Shown here: positions 34,390 to 53,361 of the stretch, in pieces
Layout: each line of letters begins with the position of its first letter
How positions within the stretch are numbered: the first letter of the stretch is position 1
Assembly (NCBI GenBank): GCA_012270585.1
Contig: JAAXIB010000020.1
Span: 13,187-77,186 of the forward strand
Direction of reading: 5' to 3'
Length of the DNA: 64,000 nt
Source: Nitrospirales bacterium
GTDB lineage: Bacteria > Nitrospirota > Nitrospiria > Nitrospirales > UBA8639
Program-made: the position numbers and the translations under genes
The notes under the pieces: generated by a model
Databases searched by the model: none
What the model saw: the letters and a program-made list of their open reading frames with translations, nothing else
What the model was told of the DNA's origin: nothing

Positions 34390-34860
34390 TTAGAGTTGGG
34401 TGGGATTGGGGGCGTCACCATAGACCTTCTGGGGGTCGAAAACCTTCTCCATCTCCGTAAATTCCAGCGGCTGGCCAGCCTGGTCGCCAAAGGGCATGGC
34501 TCGGTAGAAACAGGAGCGATACCCTACATGGCAACTGGCCCCGCCTTGGACGTCCACGCGCAGCCAGATGCAATCCTGGTCGTCATCGATTCGCATCTCG
34601 CGGACGCGCTGCACCAGGCCGCTCGTTGCGCCCTTGTGCCAGAGACGCTGTCGGCTCCGGCTCCAGTACACGGCTTCGCCCAAGGTGATCGTTTGCGTGA
34701 GCGCCTCGGCGTTCATGTAAGCGTGCATGAGCACTTCACCGGACGAGAAGTCCGTGGTGATGACGGGGATAAGCCCGTGCTCATTGAACTTGGGAGCCAG
34801 ATCGACGCCTTCCTCGACCTGCTCGATGCTCTGTCTTTTCGAACGGGGTGAACCACTCAT
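34390..34860 (-). CDS. hisI: phosphoribosyl-AMP cyclohydrolase (island copy of HisI)
   Basis: 156 aa; ...GLIPVITTD...[14 protein letters not shown]...[21 protein letters not shown]...[37 protein letters not shown] upstream. Confidence 0.85.
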
Positions 34861-34881
34861 GTGCTTGTTCTCCTGGTTACG

Positions 34882-35028
34882 TCAGTTCGCGAACCTCGCG
34901 TCTCGACACCGACGTTTTGATGCATCATAGAGTTCACCCGCGCGCAGCACGAAGGTGTTGTCATCGAAGAAGAACATCCCAACGACCTCGGCGCCGCGAT
35001 AGCCGCCTTCGAGTTGGGGCAGGATCAT
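34882..35028 (-). CDS. 48-aa ORF translationally coupled to hemB (possible gene remnant)
   Basis: ATGA overlap with the hemB stop. MILPQLEGGYRGAEVVGMFFFDDNTFVLRAG... faintly resembles a DsrE/TusD-type segment. Confidence 0.2.
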   Translation of the reverse strand: MILPQLEGGYRGAEVVGMFFFDDNTFVLRAGELYDASKRRCRDARFAN

Positions 35029-36053
35029 TGTTGCCAGTTGAAAGGTGGAACAGAAGCCAGCAGCCTCGCAGCATCGAGCGCACCGTAGGTCACGATCAGA
35101 TCGGCGCCGGCTCGGCGCAGAGAGCCGAGCGATTCCAGCAAGACTTCTTCGTATCCGAATGCGCCGGCGGCCGATGCCGCCTTGAGCATGGCGTATTCGC
35201 CGCTTACCTGGTACACCGCGACCGGAAGCACCGTATGGGCTCGCACCAGACGCACGATGTCCAGATACGGCAAGCCAGGTTTCACCATCAGCCAATCAGC
35301 GCCTTCTTCTTCATCCAGCTGGATTTCCCGCAACGCTTCCCTGCGATTCCCAGGATCCATCTGATAGGTCCGCTTATCGCCGACACGCGGCGCACTCTCC
35401 AAGGCGTCACGAAACGGTCCATAAAATGCCGAAGCATACTTCACGGCATAGCTGCAGATGCCGACATGTGGATAGCTGGCCTCATCCAAGGCCCGACGGA
35501 TCACACCGATCCGGCCATCCATCATGTCCGAGGGAGCCACGAGGTCTGCTCCAGCCTGTGCCTGCACGAGGGCCATCTCTGCCAACAACGGCAGTGTCGC
35601 ATCGTTGTCGATCTTTCCATTGATCACCACGCCGTCATGTCCATCCGATGAATAGGGATCGAGTGCCACGTCGCTGAGGACCAGAAGGTCCGGCGCAGCG
35701 GCTTTCACTGCGCAAATCGCCCTAGCCATCAGTCCCTGCCGGTTGCAGCTCTCCCGGCCTCGGGGATCCTTGAGACGATCCGGCACAACCGGAAATAGCG
35801 CAATCCCGGCCAGTCCCGCGGAAGCGGCTTCCGCGGCCTGCTCGACGGCCCGGTCGATCGAGACCCGCGCGCAGCCCGGCATGGAGGCAATCGGGGTCAC
35901 CAGATCGTCCCCTTCCTGCACAAACAGGGGCCATATCAGATGCTGCGGCGTGAGCCTGCCGGTCGATCGCCTCGTTCGGAATGCCGCTCGTGCGCGATGG
36001 AGCGGAGGCGAGTCGTCGAGCGGAGTCGGGATCGAATGGAGGCTCATTCCCAA
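35025..36053 (-). CDS. hemB: porphobilinogen synthase (delta-aminolevulinate dehydratase), Asp-rich (Cys-less) metal-site variant
   Basis: 342 aa; ...PLFVQEG..., active-site lysine region ...DWLMVKPGLPYLDIV.... The metal-site segment reads DVALDPYSSDGHDG instead of the Cys-rich DxCxCxY..GHCG. Confidence 0.9.
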   Translation of the reverse strand: MGMSLHSIPTPLDDSPPLHRARAAFRTRRSTGRLTPQHLIWPLFVQEGDDLVTPIASMPGCARVSIDRAVEQAAEAASAGLAGIALFPVVPDRLKDPRGRESCNRQGLMARAICAVKAAAPDLLVLSDVALDPYSSDGHDGVVINGKIDNDATLPLLAEMALVQAQAGADLVAPSDMMDGRIGVIRRALDEASYPHVGICSYAVKYASAFYGPFRDALESAPRVGDKRTYQMDPGNRREALREIQLDEEEGADWLMVKPGLPYLDIVRLVRAHTVLPVAVYQVSGEYAMLKAASAAGAFGYEEVLLESLGSLRRAGADLIVTYGALDAARLLASVPPFNWQQ

Positions 36054-36080
36054 GGCTCCTTCACGAGCAGCACCAGGCAG

Positions 36081-36344
36081 TCAACCGCACCGGTCGTGAG
36101 CGGTTGACCTTCCATCGCATTCGACCAGACCGCTTCCCACCGGATGGGAATCGAAAGTTGCCTTACGTCGGCCCCGCGCCGCATTGGAGCGATACTCAGC
36201 CTGTTGGTTTTGCTCCAGCCGACGTGAGAGTTTGTCGTGAATGGCCCGCAATTGTTGCGCTTCAGCGGCGTACATCGGTTCGTTGAGGGTGTGCTCAAGA
36301 ACCTGAATGATCCAGCGAGCGTCGTCGGCGCTGATCCGGGGCAT
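36081..36344 (-). CDS. hypothetical small protein
   Basis: 87-aa ORF starting 7 nt after the upstream stop. The first ~55 aa look helical and protein-like; the tail is low complexity. Confidence 0.3.
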   Translation of the reverse strand: MPRISADDARWIIQVLEHTLNEPMYAAEAQQLRAIHDKLSRRLEQNQQAEYRSNAARGRRKATFDSHPVGSGLVECDGRSTAHDRCG

Positions 36345-36350
36345 GGCGAT

Positions 36351-37538
36351 TCACCGGGATTGCAGGGCTTGGTTGAGGCGGTGCAGGGCGTCTAGGCCGC
36401 CGTCGGCTACCTTCTGGAAGCATTCATCGGCTCCGCCCCAGGCTTCGCCGTGATAGCTGCGGAACAACGCCAGCATGGGTTCGATGACCTCAACCCGGGG
36501 CTCTCCCCGGCCGTCGTAGGGTTGATTCAGCACCACCGAAAAATAGCCATCCCACTTGTAGGGGTTGCCGGATCGATCGCCGGTGAGGAACCAGATGGTG
36601 AAGTTGAGGCGTCCTCCCTGGCAGGGCGTTGGTTCAGCAACGAATTGCACGCCGGTGATGGCGTAGAGGTCCATATGACAGTGTGACTGTTTGTAGCCGC
36701 CGATCTGCCAGGACACGTAGCCCTGTTCTACAAACTTAAACACACCCTCCAACTGACCGGTTTGCAGTTCCACAAGCGTTCGCTCGCGCAGAATGACCAA
36801 TGACGCTTCCGGCAGATCCAGGGCCTGCTTCAACAATGGCAAGACCAGCGGCTCGGCGGTCGGCTCGGCGGGCGCGGGCATTTGTGGCTTGGGGCGAAAA
36901 ATGCAAAGCGCTTGCTCCCAGGCCTTTGGGGCGGACGGATTGATCCCGGCGACGCGGCACAGCGATTGCTCAATCTGCGGCCCCGCTTCGGATGACCACA
37001 CTTCGGGGTCAATCCACAGCCCGGCCCAGCCGGGTTGACGTCGGCATAAATCGGCGGCCTCCTCTACAAACGCGTTCAGGCAGGCTTCGTCAAGACTACC
37101 GTTGAGATATGGGTTTTCCACCATCGCCGCCAGCGACCAGCGTTCGCTGGCCGATCCGTCCGGACCGGCGAGCATGAAGCGAGCCTCAAGGCTGGGCTTG
37201 AAGCCAAAGCACACGCTCAGGCTGAGACAGTATCGCACTGTGTACACCCGGCCGAGGTCCACATGCAGGTGATGCGGCTGTCCCTCCAGGCGAATGTCAC
37301 AGACCCCGGCGAAACAGTCCTTGTAGCGGGCGCTAAGTACCTGTCCGCGACCGACCGGATTGAACTCCCCGACCGCGCCCTCGCTCCAGCGCCCACAGGC
37401 CAACACCGTGTCCGGCCGCGCCAGCCACCGCTGAAGCACGTCGCGCAGGAAACCGATCCGATCATGAAACACCTGCTGATCGTCGAGAGTCGCCGTCATT
37501 GATTTGGTCATGACTCCTAAACCTTTAGGGATTGGCAA
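36351..37538 (-). CDS. hypothetical two-domain protein (internal tandem duplication)
   Basis: About 390 aa. N- and C-halves share a pattern (...HHLHVDLGRVYTV...NPYLNG... versus ...SHCHMDLYAITGV...NPYKWDG...). No family recognised. Confidence 0.5.
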   Translation of the reverse strand: MPIPKGLGVMTKSMTATLDDQQVFHDRIGFLRDVLQRWLARPDTVLACGRWSEGAVGEFNPVGRGQVLSARYKDCFAGVCDIRLEGQPHHLHVDLGRVYTVRYCLSLSVCFGFKPSLEARFMLAGPDGSASERWSLAAMVENPYLNGSLDEACLNAFVEEAADLCRRQPGWAGLWIDPEVWSSEAGPQIEQSLCRVAGINPSAPKAWEQALCIFRPKPQMPAPAEPTAEPLVLPLLKQALDLPEASLVILRERTLVELQTGQLEGVFKFVEQGYVSWQIGGYKQSHCHMDLYAITGVQFVAEPTPCQGGRLNFTIWFLTGDRSGNPYKWDGYFSVVLNQPYDGRGEPRVEVIEPMLALFRSYHGEAWGGADECFQKVADGGLDALHRLNQALQSR

Positions 37539-37621: not shown

Positions 37622-37768
37622 TCACGCCACAACCAAATCCGTCTTATGCAACACGATCACATTCGCAAATTCGACTTGTTCGGTCAGCAGATCGGCGACC
37701 GTTCGTGGGCGTCTACCGTGGCCAATTGCGAACGTAAAGGTGTCGATGACGGGGAGCCTTCGTGTCAT
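37622..37768 (-). pseudogene. remnant of a COG0523 (CobW/ZigA-like) GTPase gene
   Basis: 48-codon ORF MTRRLPVIDTFTFAIGHGRRPRTVADLLTEQVEFANVIVLHKTDLVVA. It matches only the ...PV.ETF.F... and ...[16 protein letters not shown]... segments of the intact paralogs. ATGA overlap with the upstream stop. Confidence 0.5.
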
Positions 37769-37995
37769 TTTCGATCCTCAGCCATTTCGTCGGCCGCACG
37801 ACGGAACCAGGCGATCGTTCGCTCAAGATGATCGACTCCATAGAGCCTTGCAAATTCTCTGGTCTTTGCCTGCTTGTCATCTTGCAATTCAGCCAAGCGT
37901 TCGCGGATAAACGTCGGCGTCAACCGGATTTTGCAACGGATCTCGATGCAGTTTCGCCATTGCTTGTACGAACGAGGAGTGACGTCATCGCTCAT
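37765..37995 (-). CDS. hypothetical protein (76 aa)
   Basis: MSDDVTPRSYKQWRNCIEIRCKIRLTPTFIRERLAELQDDK.... ATGA overlap with the upstream gene. Confidence 0.4.
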   Translation of the reverse strand: MSDDVTPRSYKQWRNCIEIRCKIRLTPTFIRERLAELQDDKQAKTREFARLYGVDHLERTIAWFRRAADEMAEDRK

Positions 37996-38606
37996 GGCTG
38001 ACTCGGCCCGAGGAACGCATTGAAATTGGATGCAACTCGAAGCGACAACTCGCGCCAGGCCGACGCAAAATTCTCGGCTGGCACGGCTGGTCGCGTGCCG
38101 TCGTCCCACTCAAGCAGCGTTGATCGCCGGTACTCGATCCCCAATTGCTCGACGATGTTTACCTCGTAACGCCGCATCCAATCGATCAAATCCAAGGTCA
38201 ACGTTGCGCACGCATTTCGCTGGGATTCAGTCGGCGTGTTCAACTTCGGAAGATCTGCATCGGACCAGGGCGGACAATCCAGCGTCGCATGAGTTGTATA
38301 TCGAGGTTGAAACTCGTAGCGGGGCAGAAAGACGCCACCCCACTGACCATCTCCGTAGAACACACCAAATCCACGCAGCACAACACATCGTCTCCGCGGC
38401 ATCGCCAAGACATACACGCTCGCACAGTCTTTGCGATCGGCGGGCGGCTCGATGCGGTCAAAGCCGATATCGAGCAGCCAATTGCCTTCCGGTCGCAAAA
38501 TGTCGCGACCCCAGCACCACACCTGTTGGCTGAGCAAGCTCACCGCTTGTTCAAGGAGTTCACCTTCAGCACGTTCGTGATCATTCACTTGAAGTGCTAC
38601 CGACAT
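37992..38606 (-). CDS. hypothetical protein (~204 aa)
   Basis: Start set at MSVALQVNDHERAEG.... The longer track ORF would overlap the upstream gene. No family recognised. Confidence 0.45.
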   Translation of the reverse strand: MSVALQVNDHERAEGELLEQAVSLLSQQVWCWGRDILRPEGNWLLDIGFDRIEPPADRKDCASVYVLAMPRRRCVVLRGFGVFYGDGQWGGVFLPRYEFQPRYTTHATLDCPPWSDADLPKLNTPTESQRNACATLTLDLIDWMRRYEVNIVEQLGIEYRRSTLLEWDDGTRPAVPAENFASAWRELSLRVASNFNAFLGPSQP

Positions 38607-38607
38607 C

Positions 38608-38907
38608 TCAGTCAGCCTCGGCAGTCGCAATCGATGCGATGTTTGCCAACAGCCATGCGGAGGCAGCAAACAACTGCAGCCAATCCCCACTGGAGCTGAT
38701 CCCGTAAGTCAGCATGCTGGCAATCCAGCAAACGCTGGCAACCGTTTGTCCGAGCCATTCGGCGCGCAGCGCCCGTGCTAGTCGGCTTTGCCCCGCGCCA
38801 GACGCGATCCCCCTCCTCGCGGCCTCGCTCGTCGCGTTCGGTCCGCTCGAAGGCGCGGCGAGCGCCCACCCGGCGACCCCTTCGTCGTTCCTCGTCAACA
38901 TACGCAC
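38608..38907 (-). CDS. hypothetical small membrane protein
   Basis: 99 aa. The C-terminal half has two hydrophobic helices (...TVASVCWIASMLTYGI...WLQLFAASAWLLANIASIA...). Confidence 0.4.
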   Translation of the reverse strand: MRMLTRNDEGVAGWALAAPSSGPNATSEAARRGIASGAGQSRLARALRAEWLGQTVASVCWIASMLTYGISSSGDWLQLFAASAWLLANIASIATAEAD

Positions 38908-40025
38908 TCCTCCCCACAGCAGGAGAGGTCATCGAGATACATGCCCCACTTGCGGTAATTCTCCAACTCTTCAGCCGGCAGCCCCAGGGAACCGGCAATC
39001 GCCTTGGCAACCACGGCGAATCGCTGTCGATATTTGTAGATAAAGCAAAAGGAATGGTTATTGTGACGCACGGCGGGCCCGCACAGAAACAGACCCGGCA
39101 CAATTGTTGATTCATCGTGCTCGCTCATGAGCGGAAAGCCGTCGTCGCGTCGCTCGAACAAATCTGCGACCAGCTTGTGACTTCCTTCAAATCCGCCCGC
39201 CCAGAGTGGCGGAACGCTCGTTTGAAACCGGCGTCCGTCCTGCGCCGTGACTTCATACGTGGCGCCCACGCGGGTGACAGAGGCTATTGGCGTTTGCGGA
39301 AACAATTCCACATACTCCTCAAACCAATCTTCTCGCATCCGTTCGAGCGAATACGTGGACAGCGCGACACTGGGATCGGAACTTTGGTCTTTCCATGGAC
39401 AACCTTTGTCGAACAACCGTACCCGTTTGTCGCGATACGCCAGGTGGTAGGCCGCGTCGACGCCACTCTCGTAGCCACCGACAATGATGAAGTCGTCTCC
39501 GTCAAGATCTTCATAACTGGCAATTGTTGCCGTGTGTCGACAGAGTCCGCTGCCGACAAACCCGTTCAGACGTGGGTATTGGAATTCACCGGCCGCCCAA
39601 ATGACATGCCTGGCTCGCAAGGCCTCGTCGGCCGTATCGATGCGAAAAACGTCGCCAACTTTTATGATCCCCGTCACGCTGGTCTTCTCGCGTATCGGTA
39701 ACTCGAAAAACTTCGCGACTCCCCGCAAGTGCGACGCGTATTCCTCGCCCGTCGGATGCTCAACCTCCAAGCTGAACGCGGGCGAAACACCAATCGCGAT
39801 CGAGTTCAAATCGAGCATGCCAATCGAATTGGTCGGAAACGAGGGGGTGATGAATCGAGTCTCGGCCGGCCATGAGGCAAACGACGATCCGACCGTGTGT
39901 CGCTCGAGCACGATAAAGTTCTCAATACCCGCATGCCTGAGGGCTATCGCAACCCCCACACCCGCGGCACCACCACCGACAACTACGACATCGTAAGTCT
40001 TGACGTTACTTGCAATCGTCATCAA
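38895..40025 (-). CDS. FAD/NAD(P)-binding oxidoreductase with Cys-rich C-terminal tail
   Basis: 376 aa. YDVVVVGGGAAGVGVAIAL dinucleotide fold, a second fold ...FIIVGGYESGVDAAYHL..., and the C-terminus ...DDLSCCGEECVC. Confidence 0.7.
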   Translation of the reverse strand: MMTIASNVKTYDVVVVGGGAAGVGVAIALRHAGIENFIVLERHTVGSSFASWPAETRFITPSFPTNSIGMLDLNSIAIGVSPAFSLEVEHPTGEEYASHLRGVAKFFELPIREKTSVTGIIKVGDVFRIDTADEALRARHVIWAAGEFQYPRLNGFVGSGLCRHTATIASYEDLDGDDFIIVGGYESGVDAAYHLAYRDKRVRLFDKGCPWKDQSSDPSVALSTYSLERMREDWFEEYVELFPQTPIASVTRVGATYEVTAQDGRRFQTSVPPLWAGGFEGSHKLVADLFERRDDGFPLMSEHDESTIVPGLFLCGPAVRHNNHSFCFIYKYRQRFAVVAKAIAGSLGLPAEELENYRKWGMYLDDLSCCGEECVC

Positions 40026-40203: not shown

Positions 40204-40362
40204 CTACCGCTTTTCTTTATGGAGGGCATGCTTCCGGCAGTACGAACAATATTTTTTCAGTTCGATCCGGTCGGGATCGTTTTTCTTATTTTTGGAGGTC
40301 CAATAGACCGATTTGCCCGGCGTCTCACATCCGGTGCAGGCAATGGCAATCGTGATACGCAT
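40204..40362 (-). CDS. rpmG: ribosomal protein L33 (island copy, four-Cys C+ form)
   Basis: 52 aa, below the track cutoff: [60 protein letters not shown], 21 nt after rpmB. Confidence 0.8.
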
Positions 40363-40383
40363 ACTCTCAACTCCTGAGGCCCG

Positions 40384-40626
40384 TTAGATGTGTTCACCGG
40401 CCGCCCGCATGTCGGCGACGACGCGGGCCAGCCCCTTTTTATCGATAATTTTCATGCCGTGGGTTGAAACCGACAGGGTAATCCAACGATTCTCTTCCTG
40501 CAGAAAATAGCGCTTCCGATGCAGATTCGGAAAAAACCGCCGCTTGGTTTTGTTATTGGCATGACTCACACGATGGCCGGACATCGGTCGCTTTCCGGTG
40601 ACCTGACAATATCGTCCCATCAACAC
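40384..40626 (-). CDS. rpmB: ribosomal protein L28 (island copy, C- form)
   Basis: ...[38 protein letters not shown]...[17 protein letters not shown]...; single Cys, E. coli-like. GGAGG RBS. Confidence 0.85.
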
Positions 40627-40817: not shown

Positions 40818-42068
40818 CTAGGCATCGGGAGATTCCGGTGACAACCAGTCGGGAAACGGATCGGAAAATGACCTCCACCCCTCGGCCCCCAGGCTCATCT
40901 CGGCATCCGTCAGCAAACAGGCGTCCAATCGCCGACTCAGTGCCGCTTGATCGACATTCTGTCCGATCACGACGAGTTCCTGCTGGCGGTCACCATAGAC
41001 CGGATCCCAAATCGTCTCCAATCGCTTTCGCTCTTCGTCATCCACCTCCCACTGATCACGGGGGAGCGTCGCATACCAGCGTCCTCCACCCTGTAAGACG
41101 CCTGTCCCACCGGCCTGGGACCAGATCCCAACCCAATCGGGACGAGAGGTCAGCCAGATAAATCCTTTTGATCGCAAAACTCCCTTCCAATTTTTCTGAA
41201 CCATTGCCCACAGACGCTCAGGATGAAAGGGCCGCCGGGCCACATAGACGAAACTCCGAATGCCGTATTCATCAGCTTCCGACCGCCATGCCCCCCGCAA
41301 GATCTGCATCCATCCCGCTGCGCGGCTCGCCCGCTCCAAATCAAACCGGTTTGTCCGGAGCACCTCCACCAAGGACACCCGTCCCTGTTGGGCCGGCACG
41401 ATCTGCGCATCCGGATTCAGTACCCGCAGAATGGCGGTCAACTCGGCCAGTTGCGCATCCGACACCGTATCGATTTTGTTGATCACCAGCACGTCCGCAA
41501 ACTCCACCTGGTCAATCAGCAGATCCGTCACCGTCCGTTCATCCTCTTCACCCAGTTCGAGCCCCCGCTCTTTCAGGTCCTCGGACGCCTGATAGTCGGC
41601 CAGAAATGTTCCCGCATCCACCACGGTGACCATCGTATCCAATCGGGCCACCGAGGAGAGCGACCGTCCCATCTCATCCTGAAAGAAAAACGTCTCGGCC
41701 ACGGGCAAGGGCTCGGAAATTCCGGTGGATTCGACCAACAAATAATCGAAGCGTCGGGCTTCAGCCAGCCGGGCCACTTCCTGGAGCAAGTCCTCACGGA
41801 GGGTACAGCAGATGCAGCCGTTACTCATTTCCACCAGCTTTTCTTCGGTCCGGCTCAGGGCCGCCCCACCCTGGGCGATGAGAGCGGCATCCACATTCAC
41901 ACTGCTCATATCGTTGACGATGACCGCCACCCGCAGGCCCTCCCGATTATGCAGAACATGATTCAACAACGTCGTTTTCCCCGCCCCCAGGAACCCGGAC
42001 AGCACGGTCACCGGCAATCGCGCATCACGGACCACAGCCCCATTCATTTCCCTCTCAGCCACATCCAT
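40818..42068 (-). CDS. COG0523 (CobW/ZigA/YeiR-like) metallochaperone GTPase, paralog 1
   Basis: Start set at [10 protein letters not shown]... with a GGAGCAGGAGG RBS. P-loop [12 protein letters not shown], metal motif [10 protein letters not shown], ...[14 protein letters not shown]..., ...VINKID..., CobW_C domain. Confidence 0.85.
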
Positions 42069-42078
42069 CCTCCTGCTC

Positions 42079-43347
42079 CTATTCGGACTCACGTTCATCT
42101 TCCTGCAGATCAATTTCCAAGGCCGCCTGCGCGAAAGGATCCTCAAACCGGCGCCAACACTCCAGACCCAGCTTCGACTCCGCCGCTGTCAAGAGACATG
42201 ATGCCAGCCGTTGAAACAACCGCTCCCGATCCAACCGGTAGCCGATACAAGCCAAGGCCTGTCGACGATCACCAAACTCCAACGACCAATCCTGGCTCAA
42301 CTCTTTGCGAAAGGCTTTATCGTCAGGCCAATCCGCACAGGGAATCGACGCCCACCAATCCCCGATATATTCGAAAAATCGGCCGCCGGCCGTCTGAGAC
42401 CAGAGAAAACACCGATCGGGTTGTGAGGCAATCCAGAAATGACCTTGGCACCGCAGAATTCCCGGCCAATCGGACTCGATCAGTTCCCATAGCCGCTGCG
42501 GGTGGAAGGGGCGCGTGGCTCGAAAGACCCCCATCGTCCAATAGGACGATCGAATCGTCGGCATCGGCGCTCCCTGGATCAGCTTCGCCCAGCCTGGTTG
42601 AGAACTGATCGGCATCGAGGCAGGAGTACGCTCGTTGACAATCTGTCCCACCACATCCAACCCCTCCGCTATCGATAGGATCGTGGCTTCCGGGTTCAAC
42701 GTCTCGAGCAAGGAGCGGAGACGAGTCTGCTTAGCCAATGACAGCCCCTCGGTTTTGGATATCACCAGCACCGTGGCATACTCCACCTGCTCCACCACCA
42801 GTTCCGACACCGTCCGTCCATCGTCCGTCCCACAACTCGCGCCTCGGGTCTGTAAATCGTCTTCAGAATGCAGATCGTTCCATAACGTCCGGCCGTCGAC
42901 GACCGTGACCAGGTGATCAAGCCACGCCTTCGATGCCAAGGGTTCGCTGTTCTCCCAGGCGTCGTTGAACACTTCGGCGACCAAGACCGGCTCCATCAGG
43001 CCCGAGCACTCGACCAGCACCCGATCAAACCGCTGCATGTCGGCAATCGCCGTGATGGCGCTCGCCAAACTGTCGCGCAAGGAACACCCGACACACCGTT
43101 GAATCAACTCGGCCAAGACTTCACCGAGACGGAAGACTTCGATCCCCAGCGATCGACAGAGGTCCGCATCCAATCCTGCGTCGCTGCGGTCATGGACCAG
43201 CACGGCCAACCGACCGGACGACCGGCCGGCGACAACTTTCTGCACCAACGTGCTCTTCCCGGCTCCGACAAAACCACAGACCACGGTGACCGGAAGCCGT
43301 GTGATCTCGGCTGGACGATAGCCTTTGGGATGGATACCGGGTTTCAT
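42079..43347 (-). CDS. COG0523-family GTPase, paralog 2, variant metal motif and L31-like N-terminus
   Basis: Start set at [12 protein letters not shown].... P-loop [20 protein letters not shown] replaces GCICC. ...[11 protein letters not shown]..., ...VISKTE..., CobW_C-like end. Confidence 0.8.
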
Positions 43348-44311: not shown

Positions 44312-44341
44312 ACGGCCTAACCGCTATTCATGTCCAGCCCT

Positions 44342-45248: not shown

Positions 45249-45404
45249 TTAAATACGGCTTGAGGATTTGCAGCGCCCGCTGCAGCAATCACCACATACG
45301 CATGACGCGTCACAGCGACAAACTTCAGTTCCACAACAGCAGTCACACGCCGTTGTCTTGCATGCACACTTGCCATTTTTGCAGCATCCACAGGAATCTT
45401 TCAT
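45249..45404 (-). CDS. 51-aa cysteine-rich metallothionein-like peptide
   Basis: MKDSCGCCKNGKCACKTTACDCCCGTEVCRCDASCVCGDCCSGRCKSSSRI has 16 Cys in 51 residues. GGAGGAG RBS 7 nt upstream, 13 nt after the merR-like stop. Confidence 0.6.
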   Translation of the reverse strand: MKDSCGCCKNGKCACKTTACDCCCGTEVCRCDASCVCGDCCSGRCKSSSRI

Positions 45405-45417
45405 TGCTTTCTCCTCC

Positions 45418-45852
45418 TCATTTTTCGCAGCACTCCCAATTGTTTTCAAAGCAATCCAGGAGCCTGCATTCAGAATCATTCGACGCTTGACTTCCACAGA
45501 TTAGGGAAAACTCGTGGAGCATTCCCACCATCCTATTCAAGTCGGCTATCTTCTGTTCAATTTGATCGATCTTCTCGTGACAAGTCTTTGCAATAAACGG
45601 TCGTGTTTCTCGGGAACAAAGAGCAAGGTCCAGGAGATCTTGAGCGTCTTTGAGAGAGAATCCAAGCCCCTGAACTCTCTTGACAAACTTGATAATCCGC
45701 ACATCAGATTCCGAGTACTTTCGAAAACCTGACGTTCGAAACGGCTTATCCAGAAGACCCTTCCTGTGATAAAAGCGGACTGTCTCTACCCCAACCCCGG
45801 CTGCCTTGGCTAGGGTTCCAATCGTCATCAGTTCTTTATCGGTCTTTTTCAT
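45418..45852 (-). CDS. MerR-family metal-responsive transcriptional regulator
   Basis: HTH ...MTIGTLAKAAGVGVETVRFYHRKGLL...R...GFRKYSESDVRIIKFVKRVQGLGFSL.... Cys residues in the dimerisation helix and C-terminal loop (…LICGSQASNDSEC…) plus the tail NNWECCEK. Start is ATG 45852 or 45828. Confidence 0.85.
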   Translation of the reverse strand: MKKTDKELMTIGTLAKAAGVGVETVRFYHRKGLLDKPFRTSGFRKYSESDVRIIKFVKRVQGLGFSLKDAQDLLDLALCSRETRPFIAKTCHEKIDQIEQKIADLNRMVGMLHEFSLICGSQASNDSECRLLDCFENNWECCEK

Positions 45853-45857
45853 ATCTG

Positions 45858-45890
45858 AAGTATGCACTCCGTACCTCAGTACGGAGTCAA
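45858..45890 (-). promoter_or_regulatory. mer-operator-like promoter (long spacer with perfect dyad)
   Basis: Minus strand: TTGACT-CCGTACTGAGGTACGGAGTG-CATACT. The dyad ACTCCGTAC-N4-GTACGGAGT (45866-45887) sits between -35 and -10 with a 20-nt spacer. The half-sites TCCGTAC/GTACGGA are those I recall from Tn21/Tn501 merO. Confidence 0.55.
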
Positions 45891-46365
45891 GTTTTTTTTC
45901 ACCCGCACCCGCTGGCCGCGAGCACGGGAAGAGGGGAGTGACCCTATACGGCGAGCCACAACGGCCGCGAATCGTCGAGTGGTTCCAGCAGTTCGATTGA
46001 TCTGAGAGGAGAGTCCTCTTGTAAGCTTCCTGACATGGTATTCTAACGTCATACTGTAGGCCTGAGCCTGGGAATAAGAATTATAAAAGGCCTTTTTGGG
46101 TAAGCGGTAACCTACCAAAGGCCCCGTGCCGGGTCAATTTGCCGACAGTCCCGTCTGATATCTGGAAGTGCCTCCTGCGAAGAGGGGCTGACCGGCCCAT
46201 TTTCCCTGGATCGGGGCAGGTTGTCGCTCCATGGTGGCGGGTGCGAGCCGAAAACGGGTACAGGGAGCCTGTCTGGTCGAGTGGCGACCCGGACTCCGGC
46301 GAGAGGTTAGGCGGTCTGTATGAAGGGGGCGAGACGGGCCGTGAGGGTGGGCCCTCTCGAGAAAG

Positions 46366-46689
46366 CTAGTCGGTCTCGTAGCCCGGCGGGTACCAACGTC
46401 CCGGCGGCTCCCACATCCCGTCGTCGTTTTGAACGGTGAGGACGCGCACGCCGTCTTTCGTGACCGCCAGGGTGTGCTCGCATTGGGCTGATAGTTTGCC
46501 GTCGATGGTGACGGCGGTCCAACCGTCGTCGAGGATCTCCATCTCCCAAGCACCTTCGTTGATCATGGGCTCGATGGTGAAGACGAGGCCGCTCGACTCG
46601 TAGAAATTGACGCCGTTGGTGTTCTCTTTCATCACACGGTGAATAGGAAATTTAAAAGGCCTTTTTGGCTTGAACTGGAAAGTCGCCAA
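46366..46689 (-). pseudogene. map: 3' fragment of a methionine aminopeptidase gene
   Basis: Only the last ~75 residues match Map (...[52 protein letters not shown]...). The N-terminal two-thirds of the enzyme are missing. Confidence 0.6.
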
Positions 46690-46928: not shown

Positions 46929-47243
46929 TCAGTGCTTGCCATGTGAATGCCCTCCATGCGACCGGCAATCATGTCCACAGCCTTGTATGCCCAACCCGCC
47001 ACCGTAAATGTTTTTGAGCGTGGGAGGAGGAGCGGTCGAGCCCGGTGGAGGATCCGATGACGCCCGGCTTTGGGCCATAACATCAGCCCCTGCCGAAAAC
47101 ACTGACGGGGTCTTCTCCAACGGTGCCCCGCATTCGCGACAGGCCGTCACCGGGGCATCATGCATGTTCTGCCAAAAGGCAAACCGCTTAGGACAAAACA
47201 GCGATTTCAAACAATATTCGGCTTGATATTCATAGATGGGCAT
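46929..47243 (-). CDS. FmdB-type zinc-ribbon-like small protein with degenerate first CxxC and a His-rich tail
   Basis: MPIYEYQAEYC...CPKRF...ACRECGAPLEK.... The C-terminus is ...GCGHDCRSHGGHSHGKH. Start set at ATG 47243. Confidence 0.5.
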   Translation of the reverse strand: MPIYEYQAEYCLKSLFCPKRFAFWQNMHDAPVTACRECGAPLEKTPSVFSAGADVMAQSRASSDPPPGSTAPPPTLKNIYGGGLGIQGCGHDCRSHGGHSHGKH

Positions 47244-47577
47244 ACACTTCCCTTTCTTTTTGCCCAATCAGCACCAAGGCATGATCCGGTTCTTCCCGGA
47301 GTTGAATGGGGCCGACCCACCGCCAGGCGGGTCGTGAAAATTGCACCTCATGCAAAGCATTGGAGTCAGCAAATCGACAAAACCCTTTCACCCGTTCGAT
47401 CCCATCGGGCAGGTGTTCACACCATTCAAGAAACCGTGCACGATTCAGGGGACGCGGCAACGGAATCGTCGCCACCATCGGATGACAAGACGGATAAGAA
47501 AAAACCGTCCCCTGCCTTGCTTTATGCCTCATACTCGCCAAGCAGGGTTGACGGAACGGGCTGTTTGACTGCAACAT
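47230..47577 (-). CDS. stand-alone CobW_C-like domain protein (possible COG0523 remnant)
   Basis: ...FSYPSCHPMVATIPLPRPLNRARFLEWCEHLPDGIERVKGFCRF...HEVQFSR...ALVLIGQ... resembles only the C-terminal domain of COG0523 proteins. Start uncertain (47577 or 47532). Confidence 0.45.
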   Translation of the reverse strand: MLQSNSPFRQPCLASMRHKARQGTVFSYPSCHPMVATIPLPRPLNRARFLEWCEHLPDGIERVKGFCRFADSNALHEVQFSRPAWRWVGPIQLREEPDHALVLIGQKEREVYAHL

Positions 47578-47585
47578 TGCCCACC

Positions 47586-48887
47586 TTATTCGTCTTTCGT
47601 TCTTTGAAACACCGTTACCCCGACGACCATTGTCCGGACCGCCGCACCGCGAAGTCGCCACCCCGCAAACGGGCTGTTCCGCCCCTTCGACCGAAACCGT
47701 TCCGGATCAACCGTCCATTCCATCCTTGGATCGATCAACACCACATCAGCCTGTGCCCCGGCGGCCAACGTCCCGCACGATAGACCCAACAAACGGGCCG
47801 GGGCTGACGTCAGTTTTTCTATCATGGATTCCAGGGACAACAGGCTCTCTTCTACCAGCCGAAGAGAAAGCCCTAAGGCCGTTTCAAGTCCGACTATTCC
47901 AAAAGGAGCCTTGGACAATCCCCACTGCTTCTCATAGGCAGCATGCGGAGCATGATCGGTGGCTATGGCATCAATGGTGCCATCCTGCAACCCGTCGCGG
48001 ACCGCCTGGATATCCGCATTTCGACGGAGGGGAGGATTCATTTTCGCCAATGCGCCTCGGTCCCGCACCGCCTCTTCGGTCAGCATGAAATGATGGGGGC
48101 AAGCTTCCGCAGTCACCCGAATTCCGGCGACCTTGGCCGTCCGGACGGCCTCCACCGCATTCGCCGTACTGATATGCGCGATATGCAGATGGCATTCCGT
48201 TGCCTTGGACAACGCGATATCCCGTTTCACCATCTTGGATTCCGCTTCAGAAGGGATGCCTCGGACTCCCAAGAGACGGGAAAGGGGGCCCTCAGCCATA
48301 CATCCGCACCCGGCCAATGACAGATCTTCGCAATGATCGATCACCGGCAGATCCAAGGCCCGAGCCTCTAACATCGCCTGTCGCATGACGGCATTTTTCA
48401 TCACGGGACGGCCATCATCCGAGACAGCCACACATCCGGCCCCACGTAAGCCCCGAAGGTCTGCCGGCTCTTTCCCTTGTAATCCTTTGGTGATGGCCCC
48501 GATTGGATGTACGCGAACCAACCCGGTAGCATGCACACGGTCGTGGATGGTCTGGGTCACAGCAGGGGAATCATTAACGGGATTAGTATTGGGCATGCAA
48601 CAGACGGTCGTAAACCCACCGGCAGCGGCTGCAGCGGTCCCAGTCTCAATGGTTTCTTTGTACTCGAACCCCGGTTCCCGGAGATGGACGTGCAGATCCA
48701 CCAAACCTGGCGCCACAATCAACCCGTCGGCCTTGAAGTGGTCGGCATGTGAGGGAAGAGCCGTCTGTGGAGGCGTCACCTCGGCGATACGACCCTGCCT
48801 GATCCAGACATCCCCCCTACCGTTCCATCGTCCAGGGTCGATAACCCAACCGCTTACGATGATGAATAAATCGGCAGGATGGTTCAG
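47586..48887 (-). CDS. pyrC: dihydroorotase (island copy); start codon unresolved
   Basis: ...DLHVHLREPGFEYKETIETGTAAAAAGGFTTVCCMPNTNP..., ...ATDHAPH.... The track ORF extends into the ZIP gene. No ATG/GTG/TTG lies between the ZIP stop and the conserved N-terminus; CTG at 48887 after GGGGGA is the best candidate. Confidence 0.8.
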   Translation of the reverse strand: MNHPADLFIIVSGWVIDPGRWNGRGDVWIRQGRIAEVTPPQTALPSHADHFKADGLIVAPGLVDLHVHLREPGFEYKETIETGTAAAAAGGFTTVCCMPNTNPVNDSPAVTQTIHDRVHATGLVRVHPIGAITKGLQGKEPADLRGLRGAGCVAVSDDGRPVMKNAVMRQAMLEARALDLPVIDHCEDLSLAGCGCMAEGPLSRLLGVRGIPSEAESKMVKRDIALSKATECHLHIAHISTANAVEAVRTAKVAGIRVTAEACPHHFMLTEEAVRDRGALAKMNPPLRRNADIQAVRDGLQDGTIDAIATDHAPHAAYEKQWGLSKAPFGIVGLETALGLSLRLVEESLLSLESMIEKLTSAPARLLGLSCGTLAAGAQADVVLIDPRMEWTVDPERFRSKGRNSPFAGWRLRGAAVRTMVVGVTVFQRTKDE

Positions 48888-48895
48888 GGATCCCC

Positions 48896-49753: not shown

Positions 49754-50332
49754 TTAGCCATGCCCATGGACCGGTGGCTGTTCATGTTTGACACGTGGCA
49801 ATAATTCGGTGAGGTTGCAAGGGCGATGATCTATGTCGAGCTGGGGAAGGATGATCTGTTCCATGCCCAAGCGGCAGGCTCCGGTCGACCCCGGCAGCAG
49901 AAACACAATGGTGTCGCCGCACACCCCGGCATCCGCCCGGGATTGAATGGTAGAGGTCCTGATTTCACGGTAACTCAGCCAGCGAAATAATTCACCGAAG
50001 CCCGGAATCGGCTTGGAAAACAGCGAACGGATGGCCTCCGGCGTCACATCCCGTTGGGTCACGCCGGTCCCGCCCGTCACGATCACGAATTCCACCGCCG
50101 GGTCCGCCACCCAGGCGGCGATCGTTTCCCGAATGGTCTCATATTCATCCGGACACAGTTTGCGGTCGACCACACGATGCCCAGACCACATCAATCGATC
50201 AACAATGGTGGATCCACTCGTATCCGTTTCGATCGTTCTGGAATCTGAGACCGTCAAGACCGCCACCGCCACGCTGAGGCCGGCTCTTTTAAAGTCTGCT
50301 GTTTCCGTGGTTGCACCGTCTGCCTGACTCAT
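49754..50332 (-). CDS. moaB: MoaB/MogA-type molybdenum cofactor biosynthesis protein
   Basis: ...[10 protein letters not shown]...DTSG..., ...[18 protein letters not shown]..., ...[11 protein letters not shown].... His-containing tail ...[10 protein letters not shown]. Confidence 0.7.
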
Positions 50333-51024
50333 CCCATCACCTCATGGTTCGATAACATGATCATCCGTGTGCTGACTCTGCCGTTCTCTCCGAATGACAC
50401 GCGCCGGCCGGCCGGAATCCAGATGCCGGCCACCTCCACAAATTCGTTGACATAACTTTCCATCCCGATCACCGTCTGACCATCCAGCGAAAAGTAGGTC
50501 ATCACGTAATGACTGGACACTTGCCGGCCATCCGGGGCGGTGTCGTACCGTTCTATGGTATTCACCCGACGTTCGGCCATGGGGGTGATGCGTCCGATTT
50601 GCGTATATTGTCGGTTCTTGATGCGGTACCAGGACTCGAGTCGTCCTCCGGTCAACAGCACACGGCGCCCCCGGGGATGAGCACAACCGGCATCCTCTTC
50701 GGAATCGAAGGATAAGATGTAGCGGCCGTCACCATCCTCAAACGGCGAATAGGCCAAATGCATTCCCTGCGTCCACAACCGTTCGCGCACCCATTCCTGT
50801 AACGCCGGATCAGCACCCGGCAAGTCCACGGTGGTTTCTTTTCGAGGCACCAGATGAACCGCTCCCCAGACAATCGTTCCGTTGTGGTTGAGGGTGACGT
50901 CGGCTCGATACCCGCCAAACTCTTTGGGCCACTTGTACATCCGGGCATGGGCCTCTCTGACCAGACGTCGCACCTCGGGGTCGTCGGTCAGCTTCAGGCC
51001 GTTTGCTATTGTTGCGTCAGTCAC
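50329..51024 (-). CDS. hypothetical protein, possibly DUF3386-like
   Basis: 231 aa. ...[27 protein letters not shown]... resembles my recollection of DUF3386. 4-nt overlap with moaB. Confidence 0.4.
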
Positions 51025-51041
51025 GCCGTTTCCCGGTTTTC

Positions 51042-51338
51042 CTATACATCGTGGCTTCTATCATCATGATGATGTTCCCCATCCAGCGCCATGGTTTGCA
51101 CATCCTGTTGCGTCACCTCATCCGCCGTTTTATGAATCTTGAACTGGGTCGTCTTTCCCGGCCCTTCCAAAAGCGCAATGACCGTTTCAATGGGCGGACA
51201 ACCGGGCTCCCGGCACTCCAATTCGGTCACCATGACCGTGGTCTCTTCCGGCAAAGACCAGGCCGAACGAACCCAGGATTTGATGCGATCCGCCTGATCC
51301 GGATCAATGCGGGGGCGCCCTCCAAATAAATTCATCAT
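51042..51338 (-). CDS. hypothetical small protein with His-rich C-terminus
   Basis: 98 aa. ...VTELECREPGCPPIETVIALLEG..., tail ...DGEHHHDDRSHDV. 4-nt overlap with the WD40 gene. Confidence 0.45.
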   Translation of the reverse strand: MMNLFGGRPRIDPDQADRIKSWVRSAWSLPEETTVMVTELECREPGCPPIETVIALLEGPGKTTQFKIHKTADEVTQQDVQTMALDGEHHHDDRSHDV

Positions 51339-52390
51339 TTCTCTCCCACGCCTTCCACGGCAAAGAGCGCCACCGTTCCGTCATCGGCGCCCGCCGCCAG
51401 ACAGACATCAATCGGACTCCAGGCCGCACAGGACAATCCTCTCGACACACGCAGTTCCTGACTCACCATCGGCTTCTTCTTCCCTGGCTCCCACAAGCAG
51501 AGCACCCCGTCCTCCCCTACCGTAGCCACCACCCGCTGACGAGGGTGACAGGCAATTGCTTGAATCCACCCCAGATGGCCGCTCAAAAGCCGACCATTGG
51601 ATCCTTCGAAGTTTTGGGCCGACCACGTCACCAAATCAGGACCGGCTGCTGTCCATAAAGATTCTCCATAGGGATCGAAGACCACATGCCCGACCTTGCA
51701 GGGATATCCGGCCATATGCCAATTCCGCTTGGTCGAGACACTCCATAAATGGACCGACCCGTCCAAATTTCCCGCTGCCAGATATTGCCCGGTCGCACTG
51801 ATTGATAACGACAGGAGGGCTCCATCGTAGGGAAACGTATTCACGGGGGAGTCCATCCCGACCTGCCATAAGGTGACTCCTCCGAAACAGGAGGAAAATA
51901 TTTGGCCCGGATATCCTTTTCGCCAACAAAGATCGGACACCGAACTCTTATGATCAGAGGTCTCCCATTCCACAGAACACCCGCCCGACTCCGACCACTT
52001 CAGGATCTGCAGGGTTTTTCCCGCGGTCATCGCCAATCGTTCGCCGCCGGGCTCCCACGCCAGATGTTCCACCCAGCCTTTTCCATCTCCAACCGGAACC
52101 ACGGCACGCTCTTCTCCGGAATCGACGTCCCACACACGCCCCACTCCGTCTTCCCCGGCGGTCGCGAGAATTTTTCCTCCGGGATGCCATGCCTCCGCCA
52201 GCACCGCACCCTGATGTTGCGAGATACGGGAGACGCCCTGCTGGGACGATACATGCCACACCGCGACTTGGCCGCTCGCATCTGCGGCCACCAGCCGGCT
52301 GCCGTCCGGGGAGAACCTCACGGCATGGATGTATTCATCCAATTGAAACGTTCCGATCGGCCGCAATCGAACTCCGGCCCGAGGCCGCAC
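51335..52390 (-). CDS. WD40-repeat (beta-propeller) protein
   Basis: Repeated ...SPDGSRLVAADASGQVAVW..., ...GGKILATAGEDGVGRVWD..., ...GQYLAAGNLDGSVHLW..., ...VVATVGEDGVLCLW..., ...LAAGADDGTVALF.... The GTG start at 52390 shares one base with the upstream TAG. Confidence 0.7.
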   Translation of the reverse strand: MRPRAGVRLRPIGTFQLDEYIHAVRFSPDGSRLVAADASGQVAVWHVSSQQGVSRISQHQGAVLAEAWHPGGKILATAGEDGVGRVWDVDSGEERAVVPVGDGKGWVEHLAWEPGGERLAMTAGKTLQILKWSESGGCSVEWETSDHKSSVSDLCWRKGYPGQIFSSCFGGVTLWQVGMDSPVNTFPYDGALLSLSISATGQYLAAGNLDGSVHLWSVSTKRNWHMAGYPCKVGHVVFDPYGESLWTAAGPDLVTWSAQNFEGSNGRLLSGHLGWIQAIACHPRQRVVATVGEDGVLCLWEPGKKKPMVSQELRVSRGLSCAAWSPIDVCLAAGADDGTVALFAVEGVGEK

Positions 52391-53361
52391 TAAACGAGGC
52401 ACGATCGAAATCCTTCGGTCAGTCGGACGCGATCGAGGTTGCGGCCGATGAACACCATTTGGTTCCCTCTCGGCTCCGTGGCCCGCCACGGCCGATCCGG
52501 GCGACCGTCGAACAACATATGCACCCCCTGAAACACGAAGCGCTCATCTTGTCCCTTCACATTCAAAATCCCTTTCATGCGAAAAATATCGGTGCCCATC
52601 CCCGACAAGACCTCCCGCAGCCAATCATTGACTTTGGCCTCGTCCACCTGTCCGGTCTCGGCAATCGACACGGAGTAGACCGACGGATCATGCTCATGCG
52701 CTTCCTCGCCTAAAAAGTTCGGATCGATTTCCAGTTTCCGGCTCAGGTCAAACGCCCCCACATTCAACAACCGTTCGATTTCCAACCGGGCATCACGGGT
52801 CCGGTAGATTTGGGCCATGGCATTGATGGCCCGAACACGGCTCTCCAGCCGCTCCACTTTCCCTTCGTCCACCAGATCGATCTTGTTCAGAAGAATGACA
52901 TCCGCAAAGGCAATTTGTTCCTTGGCCTCTGGACTGGTGTCCAGGTGTTCCCAGATATGCTTGGCATCCACCACCGTCACAATGGCATCCAACATCAACC
53001 GGCGCTTCATGTCATCATCGACGAAAAAGGTCTGTGCGACGGGTGCCGGATCGGCCAACCCCGTGGTCTCGATAACCATATAGTCGAACCGTTCTTTTCG
53101 TTTAAGCAAATTGGAAATAATCCGGATCAGGTCTCCGCGAACGGTACAACAGATGCACCCATTGTTCATTTCAAAGATTTCTTCGTCCGCTCCTACCACC
53201 AGTTGATTATCAATTCCGACTTCACCGAATTCATTCACAATCACCGCCACCCGTTTCCCATGCTCGGTGGTCAGAATACGATTCAACAAGGTTGTTTTGC
53301 CCGCACCAAGAAATCCCGTCAATACAGTGACCGGGACTGGAGCTTGCTCTTCGACTTTCAT
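52390..53361 (-). CDS. COG0523 (CobW/ZigA/YjiA-like) metallochaperone GTPase, paralog 3
   Basis: 323 aa. [25 protein letters not shown], ...[13 protein letters not shown]..., ...LLNKIDLV..., CobW_C domain. AAGGGGG RBS. Confidence 0.9.

Follow-up and report, generated by a model that had tools for sequence, protein, structure and literature searches.

A probable zinc-starvation island at the 3' end of a tRNA-Ser(GGA) gene in an uncultured Nitrospirales bacterium

The 64-kb stretch of DNA analysed in this study (hereafter the window, meaning the whole stretch) contains a block at approximately 32.26–54.35 kb that is probably a chromosomal zinc-starvation island, located at the 3' end of a tRNA-Ser(GGA) gene of an uncultured Nitrospirales bacterium. 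Genes were called from translated open reading frames (ORFs) together with Pfam and NCBIfam scans. The gene identities, the status of the metal ligands, the insertion, the repeats and the comparative context were established directly. As judged by comparison with related loci (designated by L numbers), the conserved core of the block appears to be COG0523, WD40, a small His-tailed ORF, DUF3386, a MoaB-like gene, ZIP, the CdhB-like/u79 pair and ZigA. The ribosomal proteins S14, S18, L28 and L33 have probably been added to this core, as have a HemB that does not need zinc and putative second copies of HisI and PyrC. The island is partly decayed and rearranged, and carries an unrelated module of a MerR regulator and a Cys-rich peptide.

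A preceding sequence-only reading had described the block as a complete zinc-limitation set on one tRNA-flanked, potentially transferable segment, and had considered such packaging unusual. The core of that description holds, whereas 'complete', 'transferable' and 'unusual' were overstated. The island adds a case to an already described kind of cluster and leaves the established picture of the Zur regulon unchanged. Its twists are modest, namely, the packaging between a tRNA gene and attachment (att)-like repeats, the mosaic cross-phylum cargo and an L33 that retains its Cys residues.

Insertion at the tRNA-Ser(GGA) gene

The distance from the tRNA gene to dnaX is 22.7 kb in the window versus 0.3–0.5 kb in at least 17 related Nitrospirota loci. 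The best matches of DnaX were found in Nitrospira at approximately 52% identity, placing the organism in Nitrospirota. Five Nitrospira genomes share the order clpX-clpP-tig-tRNA-Leu-(orf271)-tRNA-Ser(GGA)-SRP RNA-dnaX-recR (SRP, signal recognition particle), and scanning of Joint Genome Institute (JGI) metagenomes for orf271 revealed 12 further empty sites. Two of these 12 are in the closer relatives L117 and L134, of which ClpX is 88–89% and DnaX 66–67% identical. The block is enclosed by a pair of 44-nt direct repeats with 86% identity, and the first 14 nt of the repeat are the 3' end of the tRNA. The features of the site are as follows:

32185–32274, + strand: tRNA-Ser(GGA), the putative integration target (ARAGORN, Rfam), identical in L099 and L114
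32261–32304, + strand: left direct repeat, attL-like, comprising the last 14 nt of the tRNA and 30 nt beyond (repeat search, family D6)
54310–54353, + strand: right direct repeat, attR-like, with a 14-nt tRNA 3' fragment (family D6); the synteny of relatives resumes just beyond it
54372–54400, − strand: degenerate inverted tRNA-Ser 3' fragment (sequence comparison)

The earlier term 'tRNA-flanked' is therefore accurate for the left end, and the right end has only the 14-nt fragment within the direct repeat. Neither viral contigs nor JGI metagenome contigs gave a match to the att core ACGTCGAAAGCTGTACTATA. A gene for a small bacterial SRP RNA (54841–54940, + strand; 64 bits, E 3e-12) lies between a YCII gene and dnaX, and the SRP RNA likewise precedes dnaX in the empty sites of Nitrospira. 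The YCII gene (54437–54754) is absent from all those empty-site Nitrospira relatives.

Two occupied sites in relatives clarify the history of this locus. In L114 (ClpX 95% identical), the identical tRNA is immediately followed by a P4-type integrase gene (Arm-DNA-bind_3/Phage_int_M/Phage_integrase), and then by genes for an HSDR_N/AAA protein and for a SIR2-domain protein of 1181 aa. This integrase indicates that the tRNA is an integration hotspot in the lineage. The L114 segment (12233–20619) resembles a defence island at the same tRNA site, and a SocA/Panacea antitoxin-like ORF is located just upstream of the tRNA. In L099, a 2.6-Mb contig with a 95% identical HisI, the cargo from S14 to u79 occupies the same site. 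Identity to L099 is 88–98% for the cargo and 88–95% for the backbone; the two have diverged alike, which indicates that the island predates that split. A similar inverted tRNA-Ser 3' fragment adjoins the tRNA/island junction of L099 (approximately 12440–12480), and the roughly 170 nt that follow the tRNA-Ser differ among the window, L099 and L114. The inverted fragments and these differing stretches suggest repeated recombination at the site.

Gene content and metal-ligand status of the block

The three intact COG0523 GTPases (two with GCICC), the two COG0523 remnants, the genes of L28, L33, S14 and S18, hisI, hemB, pyrC and the ZIP transporter named by the sequence-only reading were all recovered on the minus strand by Pfam and NCBIfam. 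The His- or Cys-rich tails are likewise present in the translations (GHSHGKH, EHHHDDRSHDV, VHGHG, CCGEECVC). The set is not complete, as the window contains no zur, ZnuABC, L31, L32, L36 or FolE2. In the order of transcription from 53361 downwards, COG0523, WD40, a 97-aa ORF, DUF3386, MoaB-like, ZIP and dihydroorotase genes are followed by a CobW_C remnant, an FmdB-type zinc ribbon, a methionine aminopeptidase remnant, MerR with a 51-aa ORF, S14, a 102-aa ORF and S18. The COG0523 gene with CVGC, the ZigA-type COG0523 gene, L28/L33, a flavoprotein, five ORFs without family assignment (together with a COG0523 fragment), hemB and hisI come next. The frameshifted ParA-like gene, the CO_dh/CdhB-like gene and a 79-aa ORF are last, before the tRNA-Ser(GGA) is reached. 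The COG0523 genes and the core are as follows:

52390–53361, − strand: COG0523 GTPase, GCICC, WD40-linked type (Pfam); nearest solved structure YjiA
51335–52402, − strand: WD40 protein (Pfam)
49754–52402, − strand: core of MoaB-like (VHGHG tail), DUF3386, 97-aa ORF (EHHHDDRSHDV tail) and WD40 (Pfam); orthologues in L088, L089, L090, L096 and L111
48896–49690, − strand: ZIP-family metal importer (Pfam PF02535, E 6e-34)
47230–47661, − strand: COG0523 C-terminal-domain remnant (Pfam CobW_C only, E 2e-10)
42079–43347, − strand: COG0523, diverged ZigA-like, CVGC instead of CxCC (Pfam cobW and CobW_C; NF038288 346 bits, below cutoff)
40818–42062, − strand: COG0523 GTPase, ZigA equivalog, GCICC (NCBIfam NF038288, 620.3 bits against a cutoff of 600)
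approximately 37622–37768, − strand: COG0523 remnant, G4-motif fragment, translation ...DLLTEQVEFANVIVLHKTDLV (DNA repeat family D1, shared with two intact genes; tblastn matches to COG0523 of relatives)

A zinc-linked COG0523 protein with CxCC is present, given that the ZigA cutoff is passed by 40818–42062 and GCICC occurs in two of the three intact genes; the scores of the COG0523 genes against the CobW model are far under its NCBIfam cutoff. In the homologue list, the WD40-linked COG0523 protein is 77–95% identical to Nitrospirales proteins and 70–73% to cyanobacterial ones. Past the Nitrospirales, nearly all listed matches with a named organism are cyanobacterial, and their identity of 70–73% is unusually high across two phyla. 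A 71%-identical COG0523 gene of Anabaena azotica is followed by WD40, a 91-aa ORF (u91) and ZnuA. This context matches the published association of the COG0523-WD40 pair with znuABC and zur (PMC2770081; PMC3323870).

The ribosomal proteins and zinc enzymes are listed below, where C− denotes a form without Cys pairs and C+ a zinc-binding form:

47586–48865 (ORF 47586–48779 and upstream), − strand: pyrC, class I dihydroorotase (Pfam, NCBIfam)
44342–44647, − strand: S14, 101-aa long form, C− (Pfam, NCBIfam)
43497–43712, − strand: S18, C− (Pfam, NCBIfam)
40204–40620, − strand: rpmB-rpmG pair (Pfam)
40384–40620, − strand: L28, no Cys pairs (Pfam)
40204–40362, − strand: L33, CTGC...CSYC, with a 3-aa insertion (Pfam)
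35025–36053, − strand: hemB (porphobilinogen synthase), Asp-rich zinc-independent type, DVALDPYSSDGHDG (Pfam, E 9e-127)
34390–34860, − strand: hisI (PRA-CH), planctomycete type, IDDDQDC (Pfam, NCBIfam; alignment to 1ZPS)

The translations of S14, S18 and L28 contain no CxxC pairs, which are present in L33 alone of the four. The motif DVALDPYSSDGHDG of HemB aligns with the Asp-rich enzymes of P. aeruginosa, Chlorobium and Toxoplasma (1B4K, 1W1Z and 3OBK), and loss of the Cys ligands has been described for Zur-linked HemB2 (PMC2770081). HisI was compared with the M. thermautotrophicus enzyme (1ZPS): Asp replaces the first conserved zinc-ligand Cys (IDDDQDC versus VDCDGD), and the later Cys-His and Cys are kept. 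DDDQDx was observed in 119 of its 120 best homologues (the remaining one is unreadable), in place of the canonical DCDxD, and almost all of the named best homologues belong to Planctomycetota (77–87% identity). These comparisons point to a distinct subtype, probably acquired by cross-phylum transfer, rather than to a proven zinc-free enzyme.

The C-terminal Cys pair of L33 is found in the context KYCSYCRKH, and all four Cys are kept. The homologues form a small clade (23 word-sharing matches), and its nearest relatives outside are from Clostridia and Moorella (approximately 58–66% identity). Full-length Nitrospira/Nitrospirales members of the clade keep the four Cys and the 3-residue insertion. 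This variant (the window gene; L111, 10001–10159; homologues P0241–P0254) was found only in Nitrospira/Nitrospirales, and always inside a zinc cluster where the context was examined. In Nitrospira sp. CR1.3, the clade L33 closes a COG0523-WD40-...-ZIP-...-S14-S18-L33 cluster, so that the variant appears to be a regular member of such clusters, contrary to the usual rule. In the L088 cluster, which is more distant, L33 is Cys-free. The L33 of a close relative (P0248) has lost its first Cys and is frameshifted at the C-terminus.

Regulation, alternative explanations and known systems

Zur control is a reasonable inference from the context of the block and is predicted only. In L089 (Nitrospiraceae), L090/L091 (Nitrospira sp.) and L096 (a JGI contig), a 138-aa Fur-family gene and a 105-aa ORF directly precede the orthologous core. 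The NCBIfam scores of these Fur-family proteins are all below cutoff, at which level Fur, PerR and Zur are undecidable. Palindromes of the type TGCAA-N5-TTGCA occur in the Fur-family gene promoters of L089 and L090 (CATGCAACTCACTTGCAAT and AATGCAAGTCATCTGCATT, respectively, over the −10 region). In L111, a perfect palindrome, AGTATTGCAA-ATAAG-TTGCAATACT, lies upstream of the S14 operon, ahead of the u79-u130-S14-S18-L33 genes. A position weight matrix (PWM) built from these three boxes was used to scan for operators. The resulting box and the promoter-like site next to it, both upstream of S14, are as follows:

45231–45249, − strand: candidate Fur-family box ATTGAAACTCAGTTGCAGT (PWM 19.5 bits, top site of the window)
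45176–45203, − strand: strongest sigma-70-like promoter of the region (score 11/12)

The score of the candidate box was reached in 3 of 500 shuffles, and one site of such a score was found in 1.08 Mb of unrelated loci. Other Zur-box candidates were rejected. AT-rich palindromes, ATGCA-N7-TGCAT and GTCAATTNAATTGAC occurred at or near chance levels, and the actinobacterial TGAAAATNATTTTCA was near chance, with 8 sites versus 2.8 expected (up to 3 mismatches) and 1 versus 0.37 (up to 2 mismatches).

We infer the integrase mechanism, the Zur control, the zinc response and the existence of primary gene copies as follows. The island would have integrated into the 3' end of tRNA-Ser(GGA), the most likely agent being a tyrosine integrase of the P4 type, whose gene would have been lost afterwards. 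Vertical inheritance would date from before the split of the host from the L099 relative. Under ample zinc, the island operons would be shut off by a Zur-type repressor whose gene lies elsewhere. When zinc is scarce, the ZIP transporter would bring in metal and the COG0523 GTPases would hand the limited zinc to priority clients. The Cys-free S14, S18 and L28 would then stand in for the zinc-binding ribosomal forms, and the Mg-type HemB would take over from a zinc enzyme.

A number of observations weigh against the reading of the block as a zinc-starvation island, and some of them touch the insertion itself. No Pfam match to an integrase remnant was found in any reading-frame fragment of 32275–32560 and 53362–54420, and there is no mobility gene among the block genes, the ParA-like gene being a conserved cargo member rather than a mobility gene. 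Composition does not distinguish the island, as the G+C content (GC) is 0.565 in both island and backbone and the values at third codon positions (GC3) are 0.637 versus 0.665 (Mann–Whitney p = 0.24). In exact look-ups of the YCII protein, no empty-site variant was found, all contigs that carry the identical gene and reach far enough being occupied. Together with the equal divergence of island and backbone from L099, these results do not bear out the proposed transferability of the segment. The lack of an integrase, the matching composition and the equal divergence would also suit a block that was ancestral at the site and deleted in relatives, the repeats being an unrelated local duplication and no island having existed. 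Such a history is very improbable, however, because all 17 of 17 empty sites, including lineages that bracket the clade of the window, keep tRNA-Ser, SRP RNA and dnaX contiguous, and the repeat starts exactly within the tRNA 3' end. Moreover, the cluster occupies other chromosomal places in L088 and in L089/L090, and an integrase-bearing island is present at the identical tRNA in L114.

Further points against the zinc-starvation island concern its content and control. L33 with CTGC...CSYC is a zinc-binding (C+) form, PyrC keeps its metal motifs (HxH, DDG, HCED, AHIS and DHAPH), and HisI retains three of four aligned zinc-site residues; the earlier label 'metal-sparing' was consequently overstated. 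The intactness of pyrC is doubtful because the GTG start of its orthologues (L088, L094) is replaced by ATC/GTA in the window. Canonical copies of the ribosomal proteins and enzymes are absent from all 192 loci compared, none having been located, and the homologue lists give no second match from the 2.6-Mb L099 contig. Indirectly in favour of such copies, the empty-site relatives must encode these essential proteins elsewhere, and the L33 type is a rare clade that was seen only in zinc clusters. No Fur-family gene is found among the ORFs of the window. Once its five central positions were masked, the candidate box was no longer significant, its score being reached in 66 of 500 shuffles. The box does not overlap the promoter but is situated upstream of its −35 element, and this stretch is missing from L099. 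No PWM box was found upstream of COG0523-WD40 or of any other island operon, and a de novo motif search (pairwise 17-mers, 13 upstream regions) revealed nothing shared. Five gene remnants in the block, the frameshift of the ParA-like gene (intact in L099 as a 199-aa orthologue and a conserved cluster member in L088 and L093–95) and the lost pyrC start also count against this reading.

Such damage could mean that the island is mostly a decaying relic of duplications and rearrangements, which is no longer a coordinated regulon here. The two COG0523 remnants, three partial S14 copies and methionine aminopeptidase fragment, the ParA-like and pyrC lesions, the frameshifted pyrC paralogues of L111 and L112, the damaged L33 in the P0248 genome and the lack of a detected operator for most operons speak in its favour. 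We nevertheless regard a relic as unlikely. Approximately 20 intact ORFs are 88–98% identical to their L099 orthologues, as conserved as the housekeeping neighbours, which argues for purifying selection, and the order of the core is conserved across Nitrospirales. The cluster might also serve another metal, such as cobalt (for B12), nickel or iron, as some COG0523 proteins do (CobW, Nha3). The metal specificity of COG0523 does not track phylogeny (PMC3323870), ZIP transporters accept a broad range of metals, NCBIfam does not assign the Fur-family proteins of relatives to Zur, and the core includes MoaB-like and CdhB-like genes. There is little chance of this explanation being correct, given that one COG0523 protein passes the ZigA equivalog cutoff with the CobW model far below its own, and that no cobalamin, urease, hydrogenase or nitrile hydratase genes were found in the Pfam scan of the block. 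The Cys-free ribosomal paralogues and Cys-free HemB are zinc-specific signatures (PMC2770081; PMC4298942), and the cyanobacterial homologue adjoins ZnuA.

The zinc-starvation island has a published precedent in ZnGI, a zinc-responsive genomic island of Mycobacterium avium subsp. paratuberculosis described by Eckelt et al. in 2014 (PMC4298942), and packaging of this kind can no longer be called unusual. In each case, a chromosomal region specific to its lineage gathers the zinc-starvation response, with three COG0523/CobW-like genes, L33/S14/S18 paralogues and metal transporters (and L31 in addition in the mycobacterium). ZnGI has a Fur-like regulator, as do the relatives of the window, whereas the window block has no such regulator gene. 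ZnGI spans 90 kb, compared with 22 kb here, it has 11 promoter-operator elements with a predicted Zur box, and its induction by zinc starvation has been measured; its description names no tRNA or integrase (PMC4298942), whereas the present block is bounded by a tRNA and repeats. All ribosomal paralogues of ZnGI lack CXXC, in contrast to the C+ L33 of the window, and ZnGI has none of the HemB, HisI and PyrC paralogues and no WD40 module.

Paralogues of HisI, PyrC and HemB with COG0523 are a documented pattern of Zur regulons (PMC2770081), and Cys-free L28, L33, S14 and S18 beside COG0523 are the mycobacterial pattern (PMC6094098). The Zur-regulated COG0523 clusters with zinc-enzyme paralogues described in proteobacteria by Haas et al. 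in 2009 (PMC2770081) resemble the block in placing COG0523 beside HisI, PyrC and HemB paralogues, including a HemB2 without Cys ligands. However, the proteobacterial PyrC2 has lost zinc ligands that the window PyrC keeps, the proteobacterial HisI paralogues keep all ligands whereas Asp replaces the first Cys here, and these clusters, for which Zur boxes have been predicted, are not presented as islands at tRNA genes (PMC2770081). The mycobacterial rpmB2-rpmG1-rpsN2-rpsR2 operon similarly encodes L28, L33, S14 and S18 next to COG0523 (Mrf/ZigA), but its four proteins are all Cys-free and have been shown to be Zur-repressed, whereas L33 here keeps CxxC...CxxC (PMC6094098; PMC11672702). Its gene order also differs from that of the window, of which the COG0523 genes score below the NCBIfam MRF model cutoff (226 and 169 bits versus 375).

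The cyanobacterial COG0523 'subfamily 5'-WD40 pair near zur/znuABC (PMC2770081; PMC3323870) is alike by identity and context, not by phylogeny, in that WD40 and a small ORF follow COG0523 exactly as in Anabaena azotica. The Nitrospirales pair is extended by DUF3386, MoaB-like, ZIP, CdhB-like and ZigA genes and, unlike the cyanobacterial pair, is located on an island here. VSP-II of Vibrio cholerae is another horizontally acquired island with genes wired into the host Zur regulon; in the part of the source drawn on here, the VSP-II genes under Zur control have to do with chemotaxis and cell congregation rather than with metal chaperones or the replacement of paralogues (PMC8248653).

In the literature searched, no paper on a zinc-starvation response of Nitrospirales was found, and Nitrospira and COG0523 are co-mentioned only in passing. 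In soils, groundwater and treatment plants, the main nitrite oxidisers are Nitrospirales. The present locus and its relatives would define a zinc-starvation gene set for this group, which can occupy different chromosomal sites and in one case a tRNA integration hotspot. They also provide a shortlist of conserved partners for COG0523 chaperones, whose bacterial clients remain largely unknown. A Cys-retaining L33 within a zinc-starvation cluster is a testable exception to the usual 'C-minus paralogue' rule.

A wider and rather doubtful proposition regards the island as a single state of a modular 'zinc-economy cassette', which would move among Nitrospirales chromosomal sites and recruit parts across phyla. 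If so, the cyanobacteria-like COG0523-WD40 part (70–73%) and the planctomycete-like HisI (up to 87%) would be recruited parts, and the logic of the cassette would exceed zinc-free substitution, as the Cys-retaining L33, the Asp-for-Cys swap of HisI and the co-conserved uncharacterised partners would indicate. WD40, the His-tailed 97-aa ORF, DUF3386, MoaB-like and CdhB-like/u79/ParA-like proteins could then act as co-chaperones of COG0523 or be its clients. On this view, the methionine aminopeptidase remnant would point to a bacterial version of the pairing between ZNG1 and METAP1. ZNG1 is a eukaryotic COG0523 protein that metallates METAP1, and according to a 2024 review no equivalent is known in bacteria (PMC11672702). 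No intact methionine aminopeptidase was seen in the related clusters.

Rearrangement and other genes of the block

Compared with the clusters of relatives, which are collinear, the block has been rearranged and has partly eroded. Those clusters also carry L31, a fourth COG0523 gene and, in some cases, a Fur-family gene, and the core of L088 and L093–95 sits with C− forms of L33, S14, S18 and L31. The duplicated segments are as follows:

53379–53560, − strand: second 60-nt spacer copy and degenerate S14 3' remnant (remnant 53440–53560; family D3, alignment)
43497–44647, − strand: S14, 60-nt spacer copy, 102-aa membrane ORF and S18; same gene order in L099
43384–43445, − strand: S14 3'-end remnant upstream of the 42079–43347 gene (family D4; tblastn 85.7% over 21 aa; alignment)

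The two copies of the 60-nt repeat (53379–53438, upstream of COG0523, and 44252–44311, downstream of S14) are 92% identical. A riboswitch or leader RNA was considered and rejected: there was no Rfam match, the fold z-scores were +0.85 and −1.0, and the repeat is absent upstream of orthologues. The repeat is not an RNA element because the alignment shows a duplicated S14 3' end together with its spacer. It represents the spacer after S14 in an ancestral S14-COG0523 junction, which is intact in L088 and L093–95. One pair of differences looks compensatory (CCTG/CAGG versus CCGG/CCGG), and the folds are not significant. The three partial S14 3' ends and the repeat record segmental duplication and rearrangement. 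The 102-aa membrane ORF is a homologue of the 105-aa ORF found between the Fur-family gene and COG0523 in relatives.

The other genes of the block are as follows:

46929–47243, − strand: FmdB-type zinc-ribbon protein, GHSHGKH tail (Pfam Zn_ribbon_8 and TIGR02605, both below cutoff)
46366–46689, − strand: methionine aminopeptidase C-terminal remnant, last approximately 66 residues only (PDB phmmer, E 1.6e-18)
45249–45891, − strand: MerR-family regulator and 51-aa ORF with 19 Cys (Pfam, NCBIfam), likely a metal-excess module
38895–40025, − strand: Pyr_redox_3 flavoprotein, CCGEECVC tail (Pfam PF13738, E 3e-92); L099 orthologue 96% identical
37765–38907, − strand: three conserved ORFs of 76, 204 and 99 aa; L099 orthologues with 88–93% identity, no family match
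36081–37538, − strand: two ORFs of 87 and 395 aa beside the COG0523 fragment
33702–34301, − strand: ParA-like ATPase, frameshifted (pseudogene or assembly error), with 50-aa N-terminal and 143-aa C-terminal fragments
32778–33461, − strand: CO_dh/CdhB-like protein (Pfam PF02552, E 6e-36); orthologues of the pair with u79 in L088, L094, L099 and L111
32542–32781, − strand: u79 small ORF, which pairs with CdhB-like in Nitrospirales zinc clusters

Pfam, NCBIfam and PDB gave no match to the 87-aa and 395-aa ORFs, which also lack a counterpart in the L099 island and look like a window-specific insertion. The CdhB-like protein (acetyl-CoA synthase epsilon family), the 70–79-aa ORF and, in several relatives, the ParA-like ATPase are conserved in Nitrospirales zinc clusters, with no obvious role.

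The MerR module is likely of a metal-excess type within a metal-shortage island. Its promoter is of the classical MerR type, with the palindrome CTCCGTAC-TGAG-GTACGGAG (45867–45886) in a 20-nt spacer between TTGACT and CATACT. The 51-aa ORF, downstream of MerR, follows a strong ribosome-binding site and has a metallothionein-like look and no family match. At 0.46, GC is lower in the module than anywhere else in the island, and the region is missing upstream of S14 in L099. Outside the island, downstream of recR (60070–61858), genes for a PhdYeFM antitoxin, a PemK toxin and a glyoxalase-family protein are present.

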